64,000 nt of DNA. It comes from an uncultured Alphaproteobacteria bacterium. Its GTDB lineage: Bacteria; Pseudomonadota; Alphaproteobacteria; Rs-D84. How positions within the stretch are numbered: position 1 is the stretch's first letter; every line of letters starts with the position of its first letter. The translations under genes and the position numbers were made by a program. The stretch covers positions 65,110 to 129,109 of the forward strand of contig CASCZI010000004.1 in NCBI GenBank assembly GCA_949156565.1, in the 5' to 3' direction. Below are positions 19,376 through 32,290 of the stretch, piece by piece. A model generated the notes under the pieces. It ran no database searches. It saw nothing but the letters and a program-made list of their open reading frames with translations, and was not told the origin of the DNA.

Positions 19376-19681
19376 ATGAAAACCATAAAAAAATATCTTA
19401 AAATTTATATTGGGATTGTGGCGTTGTTATTGTGTGGTGCGGTGTTCTTTTTTATTCAACGGGCATCTGATCTGGAAAATGGGAATATGCGTAATTGGAT
19501 ATCGGCGTCCGCAGAACAACGGATGGCCGCGGTGAAAATTCTGATTGGGGGCGAAGAACACGGTGATTTGATGGTCGCATGCATAGATAAAATTGCCACA
19601 TTACCCGACAGTGGTGAAATGGCGGTACGCGATGCGGCATCATTGTGTTATACCGGTATTCAATTGCGGGAAAACCTTTAA
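19376..19681 (+). CDS. small membrane-anchored hypothetical protein
   Basis: An N-terminal TM helix. The product is 101 aa. Confidence 0.4.
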   Translation: MKTIKKYLKIYIGIVALLLCGAVFFFIQRASDLENGNMRNWISASAEQRMAAVKILIGGEEHGDLMVACIDKIATLPDSGEMAVRDAASLCYTGIQLRENL

Positions 19682-19691
19682 CGGGGCGGGT

Positions 19692-20387
19692 ATGTGGATG
19701 CGCGCGGGCGCCCTGCTCTTGTCCCTTGCGTTAACGGCGTGTATTGGGCATGCGCCCATGGGTGATGCGTATATAGGCGCGCGTTATATGGCCGATCCAT
19801 TGGGCGAAGATGCCGGGTACGATCCGGATCCATTGATACGATTTGATGCGTTTGATTGCACAACATTTGTGGAAACGGTTTTTGCCCATGGGGATATTAA
19901 AAAATTAAATAAAATTCGTTATGCCAATGGTGTTGTGGATTTCGTTCATCGCAATCACTTTATCGAAACGGATTGGATAAAAAATAATGCCGCCTATGTT
20001 GAAAATATCAGTGCCCGCGTCGCACCAACCGCCCGGCGGCGTGTAACGATTGACCGGGGTGCATGGATGCGGAAAGTGCATGGCATGGATGATGCAAACC
20101 CGGCGAAAACGGTGGATTTAGAATACGTGCCCCATGCCAACATTCCCGCCGGTATGCGTCCACGTCGGCCATTGGTTGTTCTGTTTATCCATGATGGGGT
20201 GGGCATGCGTGAAAAAATCGGCACAGATTTGGCCATTACCCATATGGGTTTTTTGATGCCCGACGGTATGTTGCGTCATGCATCATCACGTGCCGGATAT
20301 GTTTTGGATGAAAATTTTGATGATTATGTTGCGATGCGAAAAAAATCGCGCCATAATTTGGGTGTAATGTTATTGGAAATAAAATGA
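19692..20387 (+). CDS. lipoprotein, DUF1460/amidase-like cysteine hydrolase family (putative)
   Basis: Has a lipobox LALTAC and the motif FDCTTFVETVFA. Confidence 0.55.
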   Translation: MWMRAGALLLSLALTACIGHAPMGDAYIGARYMADPLGEDAGYDPDPLIRFDAFDCTTFVETVFAHGDIKKLNKIRYANGVVDFVHRNHFIETDWIKNNAAYVENISARVAPTARRRVTIDRGAWMRKVHGMDDANPAKTVDLEYVPHANIPAGMRPRRPLVVLFIHDGVGMREKIGTDLAITHMGFLMPDGMLRHASSRAGYVLDENFDDYVAMRKKSRHNLGVMLLEIK

Positions 20388-21508
20388 GTGACGAAAAATT
20401 AATTCATTTGGATATGGGTACCCACACCAATGGGTCGGCAGACAAAGGTCGATCGACGGTGTGCCTGGGGATTGAATCATCGTGCGATGAAACGTCGGCC
20501 GCCATTGTGGATTCAAGCCGTAATATCTTGGGGCATATTATCTATTCTCAAATCCCAGAACATCAGAAATACGGCGGTGTGGTCCCAGAATTGGCGGCGC
20601 GGGCGCATATTTTGGCCATTGATCGGGTGGTTGATGAAACGTTACGACGGGCGAATATGACGATTGATGATATTGATGTGATTGCCGCGACGGCTGGACC
20701 GGGCCTTATTGGGGGCGTTTTGGTTGGTTGGATGGCCGCCACCGGTATTGCCCAGGCGACAGCAAAACCGCTTGTGGCGGTGAATCATCTCGAAGGACAT
20801 GCCTTGGTCCCGCGATTAATGTCAACGTCGGCATCCGATGCGGCACAACATGTCATGGTGGAATTTCCCTATTTATTAATGTTGGCGTCCGGTGGCCATT
20901 GCCAGATTTTATTGGTCCGCGGCGTTGGTCAATACGAATTAATCGGCCAAACATTGGATGACAGCGCGGGCGAAGCATTTGATAAAGTGTCAAAAATGCT
21001 GGGGCTGGGGTATCCGGGTGGGCCGGTTGTCGATGCCCGTGCCAAGAATGGTAATCCGGACGCGTTTAAATTTCCCCGTCCATTGTGTGACAAATCGGGA
21101 TGTGATTTTTCATTTAGTGGGATTAAAACCGCCGCACGTATGTTTTTAGATAAAAATCCCGCCCCCCACAGTGATGCTTTTATCAACGATTTCTGTGCAT
21201 CGTTTCAGGCATCTGTTGTCGATTGTATCACCAATCGGTTGACGCATGCGATGGATGATTCACGTGTGCGGGCGGCAATGCCACGGATATTGGTTGTGGC
21301 GGGCGGCGTTGCCAAAAACAGTGCCATACGCACCGCCATGGAACGATTGGCCGCGGCACGAAATATGACGTTTGCCGCTCCGCCAATGAATTTATGCACC
21401 GATAATGGGGCCATGATTGCATGGGCGGGATTGGAAAATTACGCCGCGGGCCGCGTTGTTACCACGCCGGTTGCGCCCCGCCCCCGTTGGCCATTAACAG
21501 AATTATAG
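20384..21508 (+). CDS. tsaD: tRNA N6-adenosine threonylcarbamoyltransferase
   Basis: Contains the VCLGIESSCDETS Kae1/TsaD signature and the metal-binding HLEGH motif. Confidence 0.9.
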   Translation: MSDEKLIHLDMGTHTNGSADKGRSTVCLGIESSCDETSAAIVDSSRNILGHIIYSQIPEHQKYGGVVPELAARAHILAIDRVVDETLRRANMTIDDIDVIAATAGPGLIGGVLVGWMAATGIAQATAKPLVAVNHLEGHALVPRLMSTSASDAAQHVMVEFPYLLMLASGGHCQILLVRGVGQYELIGQTLDDSAGEAFDKVSKMLGLGYPGGPVVDARAKNGNPDAFKFPRPLCDKSGCDFSFSGIKTAARMFLDKNPAPHSDAFINDFCASFQASVVDCITNRLTHAMDDSRVRAAMPRILVVAGGVAKNSAIRTAMERLAAARNMTFAAPPMNLCTDNGAMIAWAGLENYAAGRVVTTPVAPRPRWPLTEL

Positions 21509-21515
21509 GAAATGT

Positions 21516-22103
21516 GTGGTTGATATGACAGAAATTTTTAATCCGTTACCATCGCAAAAAGAAGCCGCCTTTGTCGAAGGTACACGTTTATTAAAACGCC
21601 AAATTTCTAAAATTTCATATCATCGCGTCATGTCGTTTGATGCCACAGAATACTTGGCACGTATTCGCATGGCATTTCGCAACGATGATATACGGACGCG
21701 CTTTTTTAATCGTGGTGCAAAAGAAACCCATGACATGCACCATTGGTCCGAAGGATTTTGCCAGGTTGCAAGTTATATTTGGTATCATGTGGATAGATTG
21801 CCAGATGGTCGCCCCGCATGGCGATTAAAACGGTTTGATAATTCCATTCGCGATAAAACAATTGACCCGGTTTATACGGGTGTTCATATGTGGCTGGAAA
21901 GTTGTCTTGATGGGTGGGGGAATGGCGAAATTTTGGATCTGACATTTGATCAATATGTTGATGAAATGCATCATCATGTGACAATCCCATATCACACCGG
22001 GATCATTGTTTCTGGGGATGGATATTGGGACAAGGCCGTGGAATTTGCCAATGCCATAGATATTGATTTAAAGAAAATTATTGATATTAACATGGGGCGA
22101 TAA
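21516..22103 (+). CDS. hypothetical protein, transglutaminase-like Cys/His/Asp pattern (paralog A)
   Basis: Carries the motifs GFCQVAS, HMWLE...GWGNGEILDLTFDQY and TIPYHTG. It is a paralog of the product of 22661-23125. Confidence 0.5.
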   Translation: MVDMTEIFNPLPSQKEAAFVEGTRLLKRQISKISYHRVMSFDATEYLARIRMAFRNDDIRTRFFNRGAKETHDMHHWSEGFCQVASYIWYHVDRLPDGRPAWRLKRFDNSIRDKTIDPVYTGVHMWLESCLDGWGNGEILDLTFDQYVDEMHHHVTIPYHTGIIVSGDGYWDKAVEFANAIDIDLKKIIDINMGR

Positions 22104-22110
22104 AAAACAG

Positions 22111-22653
22111 ATGGGTTTTAAAAATATACGAAAACAAAAATTAACCAAATTATTTTCCGGTGTTCCCGGTAATCGATTGGCCACACCACGTTTATTGAAT
22201 TGGTTGGATGCCAATGGTTTTTATACCCAGGTGGCATCAACCGGACATCATGGGGATTACCCGGGCGGCCTGTTTGACCACAGTTGGGATGTCACCCATA
22301 AGTTATTAGAAATGACCCATAAATTAAATCTGGTGTGGGAAAAACCAGACAGTCCGTATATCGTTGGAATGTTTCATGACGTGTGTAAAATTGATGAATA
22401 TGAAATAGAAATGGTTAATGGTCAATCAACCGTGATTAAAACCGAAAAATGCGGGGATGAACACGGCGCAAAATCGGTTAGATATTTATCCGAACTGATT
22501 CCATTGACCAACGAAGAAATTCTTTGTATTCGTTATCATATGGGCCCGTATATACGCCCAGATTGGGTTGGATATGATAATGCCATAAAACAATATGAAA
22601 ACGTCCTGTGGACCCATACCGCCGATATGTATGCAAGTCGCCTGATGCGATAG
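22111..22653 (+). CDS. HD-domain phosphohydrolase (small, about 180 aa)
   Basis: HD motifs STGHHGDYPGGLFDHS and MFHDVCK are present. Confidence 0.65.
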   Translation: MGFKNIRKQKLTKLFSGVPGNRLATPRLLNWLDANGFYTQVASTGHHGDYPGGLFDHSWDVTHKLLEMTHKLNLVWEKPDSPYIVGMFHDVCKIDEYEIEMVNGQSTVIKTEKCGDEHGAKSVRYLSELIPLTNEEILCIRYHMGPYIRPDWVGYDNAIKQYENVLWTHTADMYASRLMR

Positions 22654-22660
22654 AGAGATT

Positions 22661-23125
22661 ATGATTGATCATAAAAAATATTTTGATGCCGCGACATCCA
22701 AAATCTTGGATCAGGTTGATCGTTTGAATGGAACCTTAGATGCAATCCGTTATCGGCATGATATGATTATTTCATTACGCGACAGTATGATGGACCCGCA
22801 TATTCGCAGAAAAATGGTGCCGACGTTTCATCAAATGAATTTTTATCCGTCGCGCGGATTCTGTGAGATTGCAAGTCTTCTATGGCTTTATCATATGGGG
22901 GGCGCGTGGGATCTGATGCAAATACGCGGCACAGATTGGTCACACGGTCCACATTTTTATACGCGTCATCGTATATCGGGTCAGATCATAGACATAACCG
23001 TCGATCAATATTCGGTACGTCATATGACGGTCCCCTATCATTTGGGACAATGTGTTGAAATCGACCGCCGCCGTAAAAAATTATTGGATATGTATTTGGA
23101 ATGTCTTCATCTACAGAACAAATAA
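22661..23125 (+). CDS. hypothetical protein, transglutaminase-like pattern (paralog B)
   Basis: Carries GFCEIAS, H..H...IIDITVDQY and TVPYHLG, which align with paralog A. Confidence 0.5.
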   Translation: MIDHKKYFDAATSKILDQVDRLNGTLDAIRYRHDMIISLRDSMMDPHIRRKMVPTFHQMNFYPSRGFCEIASLLWLYHMGGAWDLMQIRGTDWSHGPHFYTRHRISGQIIDITVDQYSVRHMTVPYHLGQCVEIDRRRKKLLDMYLECLHLQNK

Positions 23126-23140
23126 TTGATAACTGATGAC

Positions 23141-24136
23141 CTATCGGCGATTCTCTTGGATATTCATATGGCCCATTGGATTGGTCAAGTTATTGACATT
23201 TATACCAATGGCTTTGGTGGCATCGGAAAATTTTTCAGAACGGACAATTTGCTGATACAGCTTATCAATTTCTAAGATAAATTCCGATATCATTTTTATA
23301 CGAATTGCGACCGCCACTTGGGGATTCTTTAGAAATTCCATGGCTGTCCATTTAAAGTTTTGTAATTTATTACGCATGTTTTCGACAAATTTATTTGATT
23401 CAATAATCACAGGGGTTGCCCGCCTTAATGCAAGGTATTCATGGCGTAATCTGTTTATGTCCAACCAACCTAATTTTGCAAAATCACGTTCAAACATATA
23501 ATGTGCATTTTCATATTTTGCGTCTGCGAAATCGATAAATGATACACGTCGGTTCACACTGTCATAAAAAATATTATTTTCATTCATGTCACCGTGTGAA
23601 AATACAAAATCAGCGTCATTTTCAGATGCCGCATCAAACCAAGTTCGTGCCATCTGAATAATTTTTATTTCATTGGGATTTAGATAGCGTTTCATTTGAT
23701 CTAAAACTGTATTAAATGAAACAGTGTTTATAGCCCCCGTATGAATATCAATATCAAATCCATCACGTTGCTTTATTATCGGGCGCATTTGATTCATGTC
23801 ATTTATAAAATGCGCCAATGCGTTATAAATAATATCCTGATCCTGGGGCGATAATGTTTCAAAGTACGATGTATTGATTGGATGACCATAAACGCGTGTT
23901 TCAATTGCAAATAATTTTTGGGTTGAAATTTCCCGCATTTGTGGAATGACATAGGCATTTGATTTAACATTTGCCAATTCATTCATTACGGTTTGGGCGT
24001 GTTTTTGTTTGGCAATCCACGCATTTGATGCAACCCCTGGGGCGGGCCGCTTAATCACAAGATCATCCGCATTATATACCAGTGTTTCACGTGGAACGTT
24101 TGTATTTATTTGTTGCAAATTGTCTGGATGGATCAT
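23141..24136 (-). CDS. aminoglycoside/choline-kinase-type phosphotransferase (APH family)
   Basis: Has the catalytic-loop motif HGDMNENNIFYD and the Mg-binding IDFADA motif. It is divergent from xseA. Confidence 0.65.
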   Translation of the reverse strand: MIHPDNLQQINTNVPRETLVYNADDLVIKRPAPGVASNAWIAKQKHAQTVMNELANVKSNAYVIPQMREISTQKLFAIETRVYGHPINTSYFETLSPQDQDIIYNALAHFINDMNQMRPIIKQRDGFDIDIHTGAINTVSFNTVLDQMKRYLNPNEIKIIQMARTWFDAASENDADFVFSHGDMNENNIFYDSVNRRVSFIDFADAKYENAHYMFERDFAKLGWLDINRLRHEYLALRRATPVIIESNKFVENMRNKLQNFKWTAMEFLKNPQVAVAIRIKMISEFILEIDKLYQQIVRSEKFSDATKAIGINVNNLTNPMGHMNIQENRR

Positions 24137-24172
24137 TATAATACCCTTTATAATAATTATAACAGAAAAACC

Positions 24173-25408
24173 ATGCAAAAACCAGAGCCATTTGTTCAAC
24201 CCGATACTGTTTTCAGTGTTTCTGACGCTGCCGCCCTGTTAAAGGGGGTGGTGGAAACCGCGTTTCCCCGCATTCGTGTGCGCGGTGAATTGTCACAAAT
24301 TACACGTGCATCTTCGGGCCATATTTATATGACCATCAAAGATGCCGGGGCGGCAATTTCCATGATTATATGGCGCGGCACGCCAATACCCTTTCGCCTG
24401 GACGATGGATTAGAGGTAATTGTCACCGGTCGTTTAACCACATACCCGGCACGCAGTAATTATCAGATTATCGCATCCGAAATTGAAATGGCCGGTGTGG
24501 GTGCGTTGTTAAAAATGCTGGAAGAACGCAAACAGAAATTGGCTGCCGAAGGGTTATTTGACGCGTCCCGGAAAAAGCCGTTACCCCATCTGCCGCGGCG
24601 GGTTGGCGTTGTAACCAGTCCAACCGGCGCCGCATTCCAAGATATTCAAAACCGATTGCGGGAACGGTTCCCGGTACACGTTATTTTGTATCCGGCCACG
24701 GTCCAGGGTGTCACCGCCGCGGTCGAAGTGGCGGCAGGCATCGAATATTTTAACCGTACAAAATGCGTTGATGTAATTATTGTGGCGCGTGGGGGTGGTT
24801 CACTGGAAGATTTGTTACCATTTTCCGAAGAAATCGTCGTGCGGGCCGCGGCGGCATCGGAAATTCCCCTGATATCGGGTGTGGGGCATGAACCGGATTG
24901 GATGCTGATTGATTTTGCGGCGGATTTTCGTGCGCCGACACCGACGGGTGCGGCCGAAACGGTTGTCCCGACAAAATTGGCATTAATCACAGAATTGGAT
25001 AATTTATGGCACCGGTTATCGGGACACTTTGCCACCCGTTTGACCGCCGCAACACAACGTTTGGCTGCCATTACGATAAAGAATCCCCGTCAATTTGTCA
25101 TGGAACAAGCCCAGCGTCTGGATGACGTTGGTCGCACGATATCGGTATTGATTACATCGCGTATGAATGCCGCCCGTGCCCAGATGACAACCGTGTCCAC
25201 GTTCCAAAACATTCTTCATAACCGTATGGCGGCCCGGACCCAGGCGATTGCCCACATGGACCAGATGTTGAATTCATTAAGTTATAAAAGTGTTTTGGCC
25301 CGCGGATATGCCATTGTACGTGATGCCGATCAAAATATCATCAGTCGCGCCGACAATGCACCCCGCCCTGCCACATTGGAATTTGCCGACGGGATTGTTC
25401 GGATCTAA
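24173..25408 (+). CDS. xseA: exodeoxyribonuclease VII large subunit
   Basis: Has an OB-fold N-terminus (RIRVRGELSQITRASSGHIYMTIKD) and an ExoVII catalytic core. Confidence 0.9.
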   Translation: MQKPEPFVQPDTVFSVSDAAALLKGVVETAFPRIRVRGELSQITRASSGHIYMTIKDAGAAISMIIWRGTPIPFRLDDGLEVIVTGRLTTYPARSNYQIIASEIEMAGVGALLKMLEERKQKLAAEGLFDASRKKPLPHLPRRVGVVTSPTGAAFQDIQNRLRERFPVHVILYPATVQGVTAAVEVAAGIEYFNRTKCVDVIIVARGGGSLEDLLPFSEEIVVRAAAASEIPLISGVGHEPDWMLIDFAADFRAPTPTGAAETVVPTKLALITELDNLWHRLSGHFATRLTAATQRLAAITIKNPRQFVMEQAQRLDDVGRTISVLITSRMNAARAQMTTVSTFQNILHNRMAARTQAIAHMDQMLNSLSYKSVLARGYAIVRDADQNIISRADNAPRPATLEFADGIVRI

Positions 25409-30217: not shown

Positions 30218-30300
30218 TTATGCCCTTGCTTTATGTTTGGAATTTTAGTATAAATTTTTATGGACTTCAAGGAAGATATAACCCAAGGGGGAAAGGCGCA

Positions 30301-32226
30301 ATGTTTGCAGATCAGACGCTGGTTATCATCATTGGTATTTTGGGATTTTTGTTGGTCATGATGTTGGGGGTGACCGGATGGATTGCGCGTCGATCATACC
30401 GGGCCATGGAATCGTTAATGACAATATTGACACGACCAGAACGCGCCCGTGCGGCCGATGCGGCCCGTGTTTTGAATACAATTATGGCCGACGAAATGGC
30501 CAAAATTCAATCGAACTTTTTGGAAATTTCTGCCGCGTTGGGGAATCAGATTTCCGCGGCTGAAAAAATGCAACAAGATATGGTTGATCAAAATGAAAAG
30601 TTGGCCGAAATTGCCGATGATGCCACCAAAAAGGTGGCCATGATGTCCCAGCGATTGGATAACACCGTCACGGGTTTAATGGGGGTTGTGGGATCTGCAT
30701 CATGGACAGACGTGGGAACGTGTTCTGAAAAATTCACATCTGATATCAATGAATTAATGTCGAAAATTGATACAACGTCACAAGAAATGGCGCAGCGTAT
30801 TGGCCATATCCAAGAATGCATGGGGGGGTGGGTATCATCATCCAAAGAATTATCATCAGAACTAACCCAGGCATTTGAAAAAAATGATACCCAGATGAAA
30901 TCTATGACATCGGAAAGCGATGCCATGCGTCAAAATTTAGACGCCTTGGCAAAATCAACTGCGGATGGTTTTGATCATGTACGCACGGCGGCGGCCGATT
31001 ATGCCGGCATTATGGACAAGAATGATAAATTGTTGACATCACAATTAACCAAAATGGATATGTTCAGCAAGCAATCGAAAAAACAATTAGCGACCCAGGT
31101 TAACACACTTAGCAGTACGGCAAACGTTATCGGTGCCCAGGTGATGTTGGCCGAAACATCGGTTGAAAAACAAATTCAAAAATTAACCGATGCGGTCGAA
31201 GCATTAATGACATCTGCCACCACGACCGAGGCATCTATTCGGGGTATTTCGGGTGAATTGGCGACATTGACCAACCGGTTTAATGGTGAAATTCGTGAAT
31301 TTGCCGGTGGGGTGGTTGGTGAATTAAAAACTGTATCGGGTGTGGCGAATACAACATTGGAAAACACCAAGACGGCGGCAACGGCATTTTCTGATTCTGT
31401 ACGTGCGATGGCATCGGGTGTACGCGAAACATTAATGGAAATGAACACGGCGCATTCCCAGTTGTCGGGCCAGTCAGAGGCATTAATTAAAATGTCGGTC
31501 GACACAACGGCCCGGCTGCAACCGTTGTCTGAACTGATTGAACGGTATTATGCGGCATTGCCGGAATTGGCCCAAGGGTCATCCGAGATGGGTGAAAATT
31601 TGGAAAAAATAGTTGCGGGATTAACCGATAAAATCGCCCAAATGCGCGAAATCGTGGCGGATTCCATGACCAATATGTCGGATTCATCCGCCAAGATCGA
31701 AGATCTGGCCGGTCAATCACGTCAACAAATGATTGATTTAATGTCGGATTATTCCAAGGCGGTTGACACCATGCAAACATTGAACAAGCAAATGATGGTG
31801 GCACGGGCCACCGCCCCGATGGATGCCATTGGAACCGCCCCGGTTTCATTTGCCCCCGTCAGCAGTACGGATTTCATGACCCAGGCCGAAAAAATGATCC
31901 AGAAACTGCATGAACAATCTGTTGATTTAACACGGGCGACGGGCGCGGAAATCCCAGATATTGTTTTGAAAAAATATCATGCCGGTGACACAGAAATCTT
32001 TTCAAAGTGGTTGGCAAAAATGCTGGCGGCGGCCAATAAAAAACAGATACGTGATTTGTTGAAAAATGATAGTGTTTTTCGTTCCCAGGCAGCTCAGTTT
32101 ACCCGGGCCTTTGCCAAGATATTAAGTGCCGCAACCCAGACGGATGCACCGGATGCCACACGGGCGACATTATTAAAGACTGACCTGGGCCAGATATATA
32201 CAGCCCTGCGCGGGATTAATGTTTAG
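30301..32226 (+). CDS. large membrane-anchored coiled-coil protein (hypothetical, 641 aa)
   Basis: A single N-terminal TM helix is followed by a long Ser/Thr/Ala/Met/Gln-rich predicted coiled coil. The start is divergent from addA and the ATG follows gggggaaagg. Confidence 0.55.
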   Translation: MFADQTLVIIIGILGFLLVMMLGVTGWIARRSYRAMESLMTILTRPERARAADAARVLNTIMADEMAKIQSNFLEISAALGNQISAAEKMQQDMVDQNEKLAEIADDATKKVAMMSQRLDNTVTGLMGVVGSASWTDVGTCSEKFTSDINELMSKIDTTSQEMAQRIGHIQECMGGWVSSSKELSSELTQAFEKNDTQMKSMTSESDAMRQNLDALAKSTADGFDHVRTAAADYAGIMDKNDKLLTSQLTKMDMFSKQSKKQLATQVNTLSSTANVIGAQVMLAETSVEKQIQKLTDAVEALMTSATTTEASIRGISGELATLTNRFNGEIREFAGGVVGELKTVSGVANTTLENTKTAATAFSDSVRAMASGVRETLMEMNTAHSQLSGQSEALIKMSVDTTARLQPLSELIERYYAALPELAQGSSEMGENLEKIVAGLTDKIAQMREIVADSMTNMSDSSAKIEDLAGQSRQQMIDLMSDYSKAVDTMQTLNKQMMVARATAPMDAIGTAPVSFAPVSSTDFMTQAEKMIQKLHEQSVDLTRATGAEIPDIVLKKYHAGDTEIFSKWLAKMLAAANKKQIRDLLKNDSVFRSQAAQFTRAFAKILSAATQTDAPDATRATLLKTDLGQIYTALRGINV

Positions 32227-32290
32227 TCAAAAAAACTTGCATTCTTTTATACAGGGTATAGGACATATGAATATATAAAGGATATATATT

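Follow-up and report, generated by a model that had tools for sequence, protein, structure and literature searches.

The interval between tsaD and xseA in the window (the whole stretch of 64,000 nucleotides analysed here) carries two members of a hitherto undescribed protein family; its proteins are small (~150-195 aa), are predicted to be cytoplasmic and have a putative Cys-His-Asp triad. The family is inherited vertically and fixed in an rpsP-rimM-trmD-rplS...tsaD-X-xseA gene array. Between its two paralogs a phage-derived, YhaM-like HD gene was inserted in this species only, and an APH-like kinase gene is an accessory that came to lie in the slot in three lineages. We do not read the block as a mobile cassette for defence or modification. 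We hold this account, taken as a whole, with moderate confidence; the family most likely functions in the cytoplasm as a thiol amide hydrolase or transferase.

The interval holds four intact genes (ORF A, the HD gene, ORF C and the APH gene), listed here with both flanks:

20384..21508, plus strand: tsaD (t6A threonylcarbamoyltransferase; Pfam PF00814, E 5.7e-87), conserved upstream neighbour
21516..22103, plus strand: ORF A, 195 aa, 'A-type' paralog of the new Cys-His-Asp family, putative triad C82/H124/D141
22111..22653, plus strand: HD-superfamily metal-dependent phosphohydrolase, 180 aa, phage-like, between both paralogs
22661..23125, plus strand: ORF C, 154 aa, 'main-type' family member, putative triad C68/H98/D111
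23141..24136, minus strand: APH/choline-kinase-like phosphotransferase, 331 aa (Pfam PF01636), accessory gene
24173..25408, plus strand: xseA (exonuclease VII large subunit; Pfam PF02601, E 5e-84, also PF13742), conserved downstream neighbour

A first-pass annotation had described co-directional, tightly packed genes between tsaD and xseA, and this description holds: the coordinates match, gaps of 7 nt each separate tsaD from ORF A, ORF A from the HD gene and the HD gene from ORF C, and Pfam identifies both flanks. The motifs quoted at that stage were all found, namely GFCQVAS/GFCEIAS, LDLTFDQY/IDITVDQY and IPYH/VPYH in the paralogs, GHHGD...LFDHS...MFHD in the HD protein and HGD...IDFAD in the kinase. 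The HD gene has alternative starts at 22081 and 22111, and the public gene call agrees with the phage alignment in pointing to the second, an ATG (180 aa); for the APH gene a longer reading frame, up to 24199, is also open.

ORF A and ORF C had been taken for paralogs, and their relationship goes well beyond chance: pairwise BLASTP aligns them at 27% identity over 131 residues (E 1e-9), and the family profile matches both (E 1e-40 to 1e-48). They are anciently diverged. No Pfam model covers the family, whose gene is unannotated. Word-indexed searches with ORF A, ORF C or the family alignment gave almost no matches, and exhaustive HMM search alone recovered the family, as only 54 clusters among 1.84 billion representatives. 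Genomes were scanned for family loci with a 12-sequence subset of the family alignment, the full alignment being too diverse. All contigs of the 48 genome and 20 metagenome loci have the same gene order; these 68 contigs are labelled Alphaproteobacteria, Enterousia or proteobacterium, a few with other labels excepted, and no contig among them is viral. All hosts found are Alphaproteobacteria of gut or rumen whose genomes are reduced, namely Candidatus Enterousia and its relatives; the order of Enterousia is Rs-D84. Genomes of the Enterousia/Rs-D84 group are smaller than 1 Mb, and most of their metabolism has been lost (PMC12306168).

In ORF C numbering, C68 and P125 are invariant across the family, and R40, H98, D111, T113, D115, Q116 and Y126 are conserved at 90% or above. 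The candidate catalytic Cys is present in all 64 domains that cover the site, the His in 59 of 65 and the Asp in 61 of 65. Invariance, proposed earlier as a check on the triad, is complete for the Cys; at least one copy at every full-length locus bears the complete signature, and each of the six His-less copies is a second copy or a fused half. In the AF2 model of ORF C, Cys68 opens helix 68-79 (pLDDT 94.1) and strands follow; strand 98-103 begins at His98, and Asp111 lies just after strand 109-110. Cys82 of ORF A likewise opens a helix (82-92, pLDDT 87.5) that is followed by strands. Clan CA enzymes of the papain/transglutaminase type have their nucleophilic Cys where a helix begins, packed against an antiparallel beta-sheet, and their His and Asp on successive strands in a conserved C-H-D order; the AF2 models and the family alignment agree with both features. 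The ORF C model also has an N-terminal domain of four helices, carrying the conserved Thr and Arg, and ORF A has an N-terminal helical domain and insertions.

The reading of these proteins as transglutaminase-like Cys-His-Asp enzymes stands in part. Residue order and helix/strand placement in the AF2 models agree with it, but neither the window proteins nor 49 family members match Transglut_core (PF01841) or any other clan CA Pfam model. Searches of PDB sequences with the family profile and with single sequences gave chance matches only, and Foldseek against PDB was uninformative; structural neighbours were strongly enriched for Cys-His-Asp enzymes, at weak Z values. From the models, we infer that the fold may be a minimal papain/transglutaminase-like core. 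The closest known systems include the Cys-His-Asp glutamine deamidases of the SseI/PMT-C3 type (PDB 4g29). The transglutaminase-like/protein-glutaminase/LapG (BTLCP) group of clan CA differs in that it gives no profile match and the core of our family is much smaller (~90 residues); the additional conserved motifs D115-Q116 and P125-Y126 are not known from those families. The sole sequence-profile link is to YunG (Pfam PF24585, uncharacterised), where residues 62-121 of ORF C align with positions 29-82 of the profile (E 9e-5). At 23 bits, ORF C falls short of the gathering score of 27, ORF A has no match, and the YunG matches, found in 6 of 49 family members, are weak and all under the gathering score. 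With just 116 positions, the YunG profile would not span the N-terminal helical domain of the family; we found no literature on YunG.

What might be the chemistry of the family? A Cys-His-Asp triad would arise from the Cys that opens the helix, the His in the strand that follows and the Asp beyond a further strand; in it, a His-activated thiolate would attack an amide or thioester carbonyl to yield an acyl-enzyme. Resolution of this intermediate by water would make the protein a deamidase, amidase or peptidase, and resolution by an amine a transferase. The same chemistry would operate as in SseI/PMT, protein-glutaminase, Ntaq1, transglutaminases and NATs. Alternatively, the family could be non-enzymatic, its Cys, His and Asp serving metal binding, redox or structural roles and the protein acting as an adaptor or scaffold in a housekeeping complex. 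We consider this unlikely. The placement of the three residues on helix and strands, with clan-CA-like spacing, fits a triad better than a metal site, and the enrichment among structural neighbours also argues against it. Furthermore, His-less copies are never alone, which is the usual pattern of an active enzyme and its pseudoenzyme partner.

At each of the 69 other examined loci that retains flanking sequence, the family gene adjoins tsaD, xseA or both; tsaD lies directly upstream in related loci that reach that far, and xseA follows, in most, after an estimated 0-7 nt. In loci that hold both tsaD and xseA, the two are never directly adjacent and the family always lies between them. The content of the slot varies from one family copy, as in most genomes, to two copies or a fused two-domain protein. 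In the fusion of P0004, directly upstream of xseA, the N-terminal half is A-type and the C-terminal half main-type, and family copies are likewise fused in L049 and L051. A-type and main-type copies are likely to work together as a heteromer, since another lineage has this pair fused in the same order and since copies without the His are found only next to, or fused with, intact copies. The family is under purifying selection (dN/dS 0.05-0.15). tsaD is probably its operon partner, and co-transcription with both tsaD and xseA is probable.

Such a position could mean that the family serves one fixed neighbour as a dedicated partner specific to this lineage, either as a peptidase trimming DNA-protein adducts for XseA or as a surrogate accessory subunit of TsaD in t6A synthesis. 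The invariant adjacency to tsaD/xseA and the short gap to xseA are consistent with this, as are the DNA-repair functions encoded downstream of the block (xseA, an SMC_N/recN-like gene and a UvrD-like helicase) and the retention of the gene in genomes smaller than 1 Mb. However, genes are collinear and compactly arranged over all 15 kb of the region, and adjacency therefore carries little information. The APH gene separates the family from xseA in the window, breaking an otherwise tight junction, and from tsaD in L036, and neither gene was lost. Nor does the family N-terminus show XseB-like similarity: XseB-like N-terminal helices, considered as an explanation for the tight xseA junction, were rejected (hhalign probability 0.1%, no Pfam match). 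Thus, a dedicated partnership with either neighbour seems quite unlikely. A bolder form is a long shot: the family would be an essential, order-specific thiol peptidase/deamidase working with a fixed neighbour, as an intracellular peptidase debulking covalent protein-DNA adducts for exonuclease VII or as a new TsaD accessory factor, and A-type or His-less paralogs would be regulatory pseudoenzyme subunits. If the peptidase version were true, the adduct would be debulked first and exonuclease VII would then remove the remnant.

In our favoured account, the family is the vertically kept element of the block, and the HD gene, derived from phage, and the kinase gene are later additions. The identification of the HD protein as an HD-domain phosphohydrolase was confirmed by its set of metal-ligand motifs (invariant H47, H57, H89-D90, H118, H143, H169 and D172) and by the profile phrog_5889 (E 3e-22); phrog_28876 also matches (E 1e-19). 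Its Pfam HD score (18.2 bits) is under the gathering score of 22, so that it is the phage profiles and the motifs that place the protein in the superfamily. The protein is 30-47% identical to HD proteins of gut phage contigs and Dp-1-like phages. With the YhaM/Cbf1 HD-domain 3'-5' exoribonucleases and with phage HD phosphohydrolases it has in common the motif block PA.T..HH....GL..H ... HD, but it is just 180 aa long, its activity is putative and the profile match to the YhaM 3'-5' exoribonuclease is weak (E 0.025-0.043). The HD gene is absent from all 68 screened genome and metagenome loci. Conservation of the family-HD-family triplet across genomes, raised as a check, was not found: the triplet occurs in this species only, and elsewhere just a 923-bp fragment of the mosaic variant strain L061 has HD-ORF C-APH.

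The divergent kinase on the minus strand, likewise assigned earlier to the APH family, scores 35.3 bits with Pfam PF01636, over the gathering score of 23.2. As in other APH/choline-kinase-like phosphotransferases, it has the HGDxxxxN loop (SHGDMNENN, the HxDxxxxN catalytic loop) and the IDFAD metal-binding motif. It differs from resistance enzymes in that no resistance model matched: the best NCBIfam resistance scores were 17-18 bits, far under cut-offs of 205-580, and an identity as an aminoglycoside or macrolide resistance kinase was not supported. No solved relative was found by sequence. Homologs with 37-42% identity lie on the minus strand of the same slot in L036 and L056, at differing positions, so that three lineages have an APH gene between tsaD and xseA.

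Could the four genes nonetheless have arrived by horizontal transfer, as an enzyme, defence or modification cassette in which the HD protein, the kinase and both Cys-His-Asp proteins act jointly? GC content is 35-42% across the block against ~50% in the flanks, some 10 points lower, the HD gene has phage affinity, packing is tight, the APH gene recurs in the slot of two other genomes and L061 keeps the HD-ORF C-APH order. However, the family gene has a GC content 2-14 points under that of tsaD in every genome (at least 5 points, two comparisons excepted), and since the deficit is family-wide, low GC is not a sign of recent transfer, which we rejected as its cause. An insertion between tsaD and xseA, as first considered, does not agree with a slot that is filled at every other examined locus with flanks, and the absence of the HD gene from the screened loci also speaks against the cassette. 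Around the HD gene, the APH gene and the block borders we found no insertion repeats beyond short chance repeats; no integrase flanks the block, and of three tRNAs detected by Rfam in all, none is near it. PADLOC gave no defence match for ORF A, the HD protein or ORF C, and only a sub-threshold one for the kinase (PDC-M35B, E 0.03). Finally, no family member was detected in a scan of viral contigs, in tblastn searches of ORF A and ORF C against phages, or in the phage neighbourhoods of HD homologs (L003-L005). The acquired-cassette reading is thus largely refuted already, and we regard it as very unlikely; of all four genes, only HD and possibly APH behave as insertions. A toxin-immunity or toxin-antitoxin type pair is barely credible: ORF A and ORF C are indeed small, fast-diverging adjacent paralogs, and some partner copies appear catalytically degenerate, but most genomes have a single copy, inheritance is vertical within a housekeeping operon, dN/dS is low, the paralogs can be fused, and there is neither a secretion signal nor a mobile context.

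For annotation, the block shows that a local GC dip and unknown genes amid housekeeping genes need not mark an island. If the family is enzymatic, its members would rank with the smallest known Cys-His-Asp enzymes that process amides, and the naturally paired enzymes and pseudoenzymes would lend themselves to study. Kept at every locus examined, sometimes duplicated or fused, and under purifying selection in genomes smaller than 1 Mb, the family is a candidate lineage-defining function in common, not yet culturable gut and rumen symbionts.

Four intact genes, seen in both the ORF list and the raw sequence, lie between tsaD and xseA:

20384-21508: tsaD (Pfam TsaD confirmed)
21516-22103, + strand: ORF A, 195 aa
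22111-22653, + strand: HD-domain phosphohydrolase gene (HD), 180 aa from the ATG of the public gene call
22661-23125, + strand: ORF C, 154 aa
23141-24136, - strand: APH-like (kinase-like) gene, 331 aa (Pfam APH 35.3 bits against a gathering score of 23.2)
24173-25408: xseA (Pfam Exonuc_VII_L confirmed)

The tsaD/A, A/HD and HD/C junctions are 7-nt gaps, and a TTG at 22081 is a possible alternative HD start. All motifs quoted in the first-pass annotation were found in the sequence, and the paralogy it proposed for ORF A and ORF C is borne out by BLASTP (27% identity, E 1e-9). The block has a GC content of 35-42%, against about 50% outside it, and sits in an ordinary chromosomal housekeeping context. 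An AmiA-like N-acetylmuramoyl-L-alanine amidase-like protein (19593-20387, + strand; PF07313, E 1.6e-26) is encoded directly 5' of tsaD, overlapping it, as in many related loci. Large ORFs of 836, 435 and 641 aa at ~1-2200 (L064:1967-5800) and ~30300-32230 (L001:18786-20588) show no Pfam domain or faint repeat-type matches (for the 641-aa protein, weak Apolipoprotein and faint Baculo_PEP_C); their products may be lineage-specific surface or structural proteins.

How widespread are the paralogs? Word-indexed searches recovered essentially the same species alone, and a profile search run exhaustively over 1.84 billion cluster representatives returned 54 clusters at an E of 1e-3 or better. The proteins are mostly 150-190 aa long; two longer ones contain two matched stretches. 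Scanning one genome per GTDB species for the pattern gave 48 loci, almost all from MAGs of gut or rumen origin that bear the label Alphaproteobacteria, proteobacterium or Candidatus Enterousia; a metagenome scan added 20, and a viral-contig scan yielded no family locus. Enterousia and its order, Rs-D84, have been described as gut bacteria that are uncultured and have reduced genomes of <1 Mb (PMC12306168). Some loci (L029, L030, L043, L054, L055, L056, L059) are titled "uncultured Muribaculaceae bacterium"; their gene array is of the alphaproteobacterial Enterousia type and their TsaD shares 70-74% identity with that of the window, so they probably come from mislabelled or mis-binned MAGs. In a 49-member alignment, the Cys (C68 in ORF C) and a Pro (P125) are invariant, and R40, H98, D111, T113, D115, Q116 and Y126 are at least 90% conserved. 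Of the Cys-His-Asp triad suggested earlier, invariance holds for the Cys, with the His and Asp at 90% or more.

Confident AlphaFold2 models built with the family alignment (ORF C, pLDDT 94.1, pTM 0.89; ORF A, pLDDT 87.5, pTM 0.84) both predict a helical domain at the N-terminus. After it come a helix with the invariant Cys (C68/C82) as its first residue, a strand, a His-bearing strand and a short strand with the Asp directly after it. H98 of ORF C is the first residue of its strand and D111 directly follows the last short strand; in ORF A, H124 comes second in strand 123-129 and D141 takes the position of D111. The SseI subgroup has a Cys at the end of a helix, a Cys-His-Asp triad (SseI 178/216/231; PMT 1165/1205/1220; protein-glutaminase 42/83/103) and activities that are all amide hydrolysis or transfer (PMC3498931). 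The models resemble this subgroup in Cys-helix position and C-H-D order, and the C-H/H-D spacings (30/13 in ORF C, 42/17 in ORF A) are comparable. Several results speak against this assignment: Foldseek gave nothing significant, Pfam clan-CA profiles had zero matches among the 49 members, and the family profile matched no PDB sequence; the sole Pfam profile matched, weakly and in 6 of the 49, was the uncharacterised YunG family, sub-threshold for ORF C. We therefore consider a papain/transglutaminase-like fold probable and infer catalysis. With moderate confidence, we propose that family members are thiol enzymes that act in the cytoplasm and belong to the Cys-His-Asp branch of clan CA. Their sequences have no signal peptide or hydrophobic N-terminus.

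Are these genes under selection? The TsaD of the window shares 70-81% identity with those of the other loci, family members share about 20-50%, and dN/dS in close genome pairs is 0.05-0.15 for the family, slightly above tsaD and xseA (0.03-0.11). Thus, these are real genes under constraint, concentrated at the signature residues. Between L030 and L033, the family genes are 97% identical (dS 0.07), against a dS of about 0.55-0.58 for the tsaD and xseA on either side, which suggests that the slot recently underwent gene conversion or exchange; L057/L060 show a milder version.

A neighbour-joining tree resolved several paralog classes. ORF A belongs to an "A-type" clade (window, L013, L018, L057, L058, L060) that is always first in the slot, and ORF C to the main clade with most single copies. 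At least one copy at every full-length locus has the full R-C-S-W/F-H-D-T-D-Q-P-Y signature. Val replaces the His in six copies, and D111, D115 and Q116 are missing from four of them as well; all six are extra copies or fused halves, which argues that the His and Asp are functionally important. Such a distribution is typical of an active enzyme paired with a pseudoenzyme. We give a non-catalytic role for the family a low probability.

Most genomes have a single copy in the slot; 15 other loci and the window have two separate copies, and L049, L051, P0004 and P0008 encode fused proteins of two domains. P0004 (361 aa, directly upstream of xseA) joins an A-type N-half to a main-type C-half, the order of the ORF A/ORF C pair, suggesting that the two types interact. 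At L049:2407-3447 and L051:5983-6996, the fusion pairs an intact main-type half with one lacking the His; P0008 (315 aa) joins a main-type half to one of a third paralog class, with DITYTQ replacing DLTxDQ.

Of the 69 other loci examined (48 genome, 20 metagenome and the P0004 locus), each one with flanking sequence left has a family gene adjoining tsaD and/or xseA. The gene order is collinear, rpsP-rimM-trmD-rplS-DUF2155-...-(AmiA-like)-tsaD-family-xseA, and SMC_N/recN-like and UvrD-like helicase genes come next on the opposite strand. When start codons are placed approximately, the median distance from tsaD to the family gene is about 25 nt, and xseA mostly begins 0-7 nt after the family gene. 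This invariant, tight adjacency makes a dedicated partnership with XseA or TsaD attractive; support for it is weak, however, since gene order is collinear and spacing compact throughout the region, and a test for an XseB-like N-terminus came out negative. That ORF A and ORF C form a toxin-immunity pair is unlikely given the single copies, vertical inheritance and fusions.

The first-pass annotation had read the block as a possible inserted cassette or defence module. Among loci holding both genes, tsaD never abuts xseA; the adjacency check suggested in that annotation thus argues against insertion. No repeats or tRNA were found at the block borders. Family GC lies 2-14 points below that of tsaD in every genome (at least 5 in all but two comparisons); thus, the GC dip is a property of the family and not a sign of recent transfer. 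With the family in the slot at every other examined locus that keeps flanking sequence and no PADLOC match to ORF A, ORF C or HD (APH gave a sub-threshold one), a horizontally acquired cassette or defence role is essentially refuted. The first-pass observation itself stands, and its interpretation is supported in part.

The HD protein has a sub-threshold Pfam HD match but matches phage families phrog_5889 (E 3e-22) and phrog_28876, and shares 30-47% identity with proteins from phages: uncultured ones of the human gut, and Faecalibacterium, Clostridium and Streptococcus Dp-1-like phages. The neighbours of these phage homologues serve replication and nucleotide metabolism, and none is a family member. 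An alignment with three of the homologues shows invariant metal ligands, and the resulting profile weakly matches YhaM 3'-5' exoribonucleases (E 0.025, 0.043). A screen of 68 loci from genomes and metagenomes found no HD homologue. HD is thus a species-specific insertion, probably phage-derived, between two genes fused elsewhere. A 923-bp variant-strain contig, L061, keeps the HD-ORF C-APH order; when L061:1-923 is compared with 22813-23441, its right part is 97% identical, from mid-ORF C through the APH 3' end, and its left part (HD C-terminus, ORF C N-terminus) has diverged beyond blastn detection. This pattern indicates a recombination breakpoint inside ORF C, and that alleles differ in the 5' region of HD/ORF C.

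The APH-like protein carries catalytic HGDxxxxN and IDFAD motifs; no resistance-kinase model or solved relative matched it. Homologues (37-42% identity, minus strand) occupy the slot in two other loci, lying on the tsaD side of the family gene in L036 and on its xseA side in L056. Present in 3 of about 70 loci at differing positions, the gene is accessory and not a core component. The divergent APH-like and xseA starts are separated by only 36 bp (24137-24172), and a promoter-like TTGCAA-18-TATAAT for xseA (24113-24142) lies mostly within the APH 5' coding region; APH insertion thus appears to have separated xseA from the family gene, to which it is normally tightly coupled.

What might the thiol enzyme do? 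Its helix-capping Cys would form an acyl-enzyme and an amide-linked group would be hydrolysed or transferred, the working form probably being a homo- or heteromer expressed from a housekeeping operon. Rather than a novel defence or modification system, the block reveals a family that is new, restricted to one lineage and probably part of a known superfamily.
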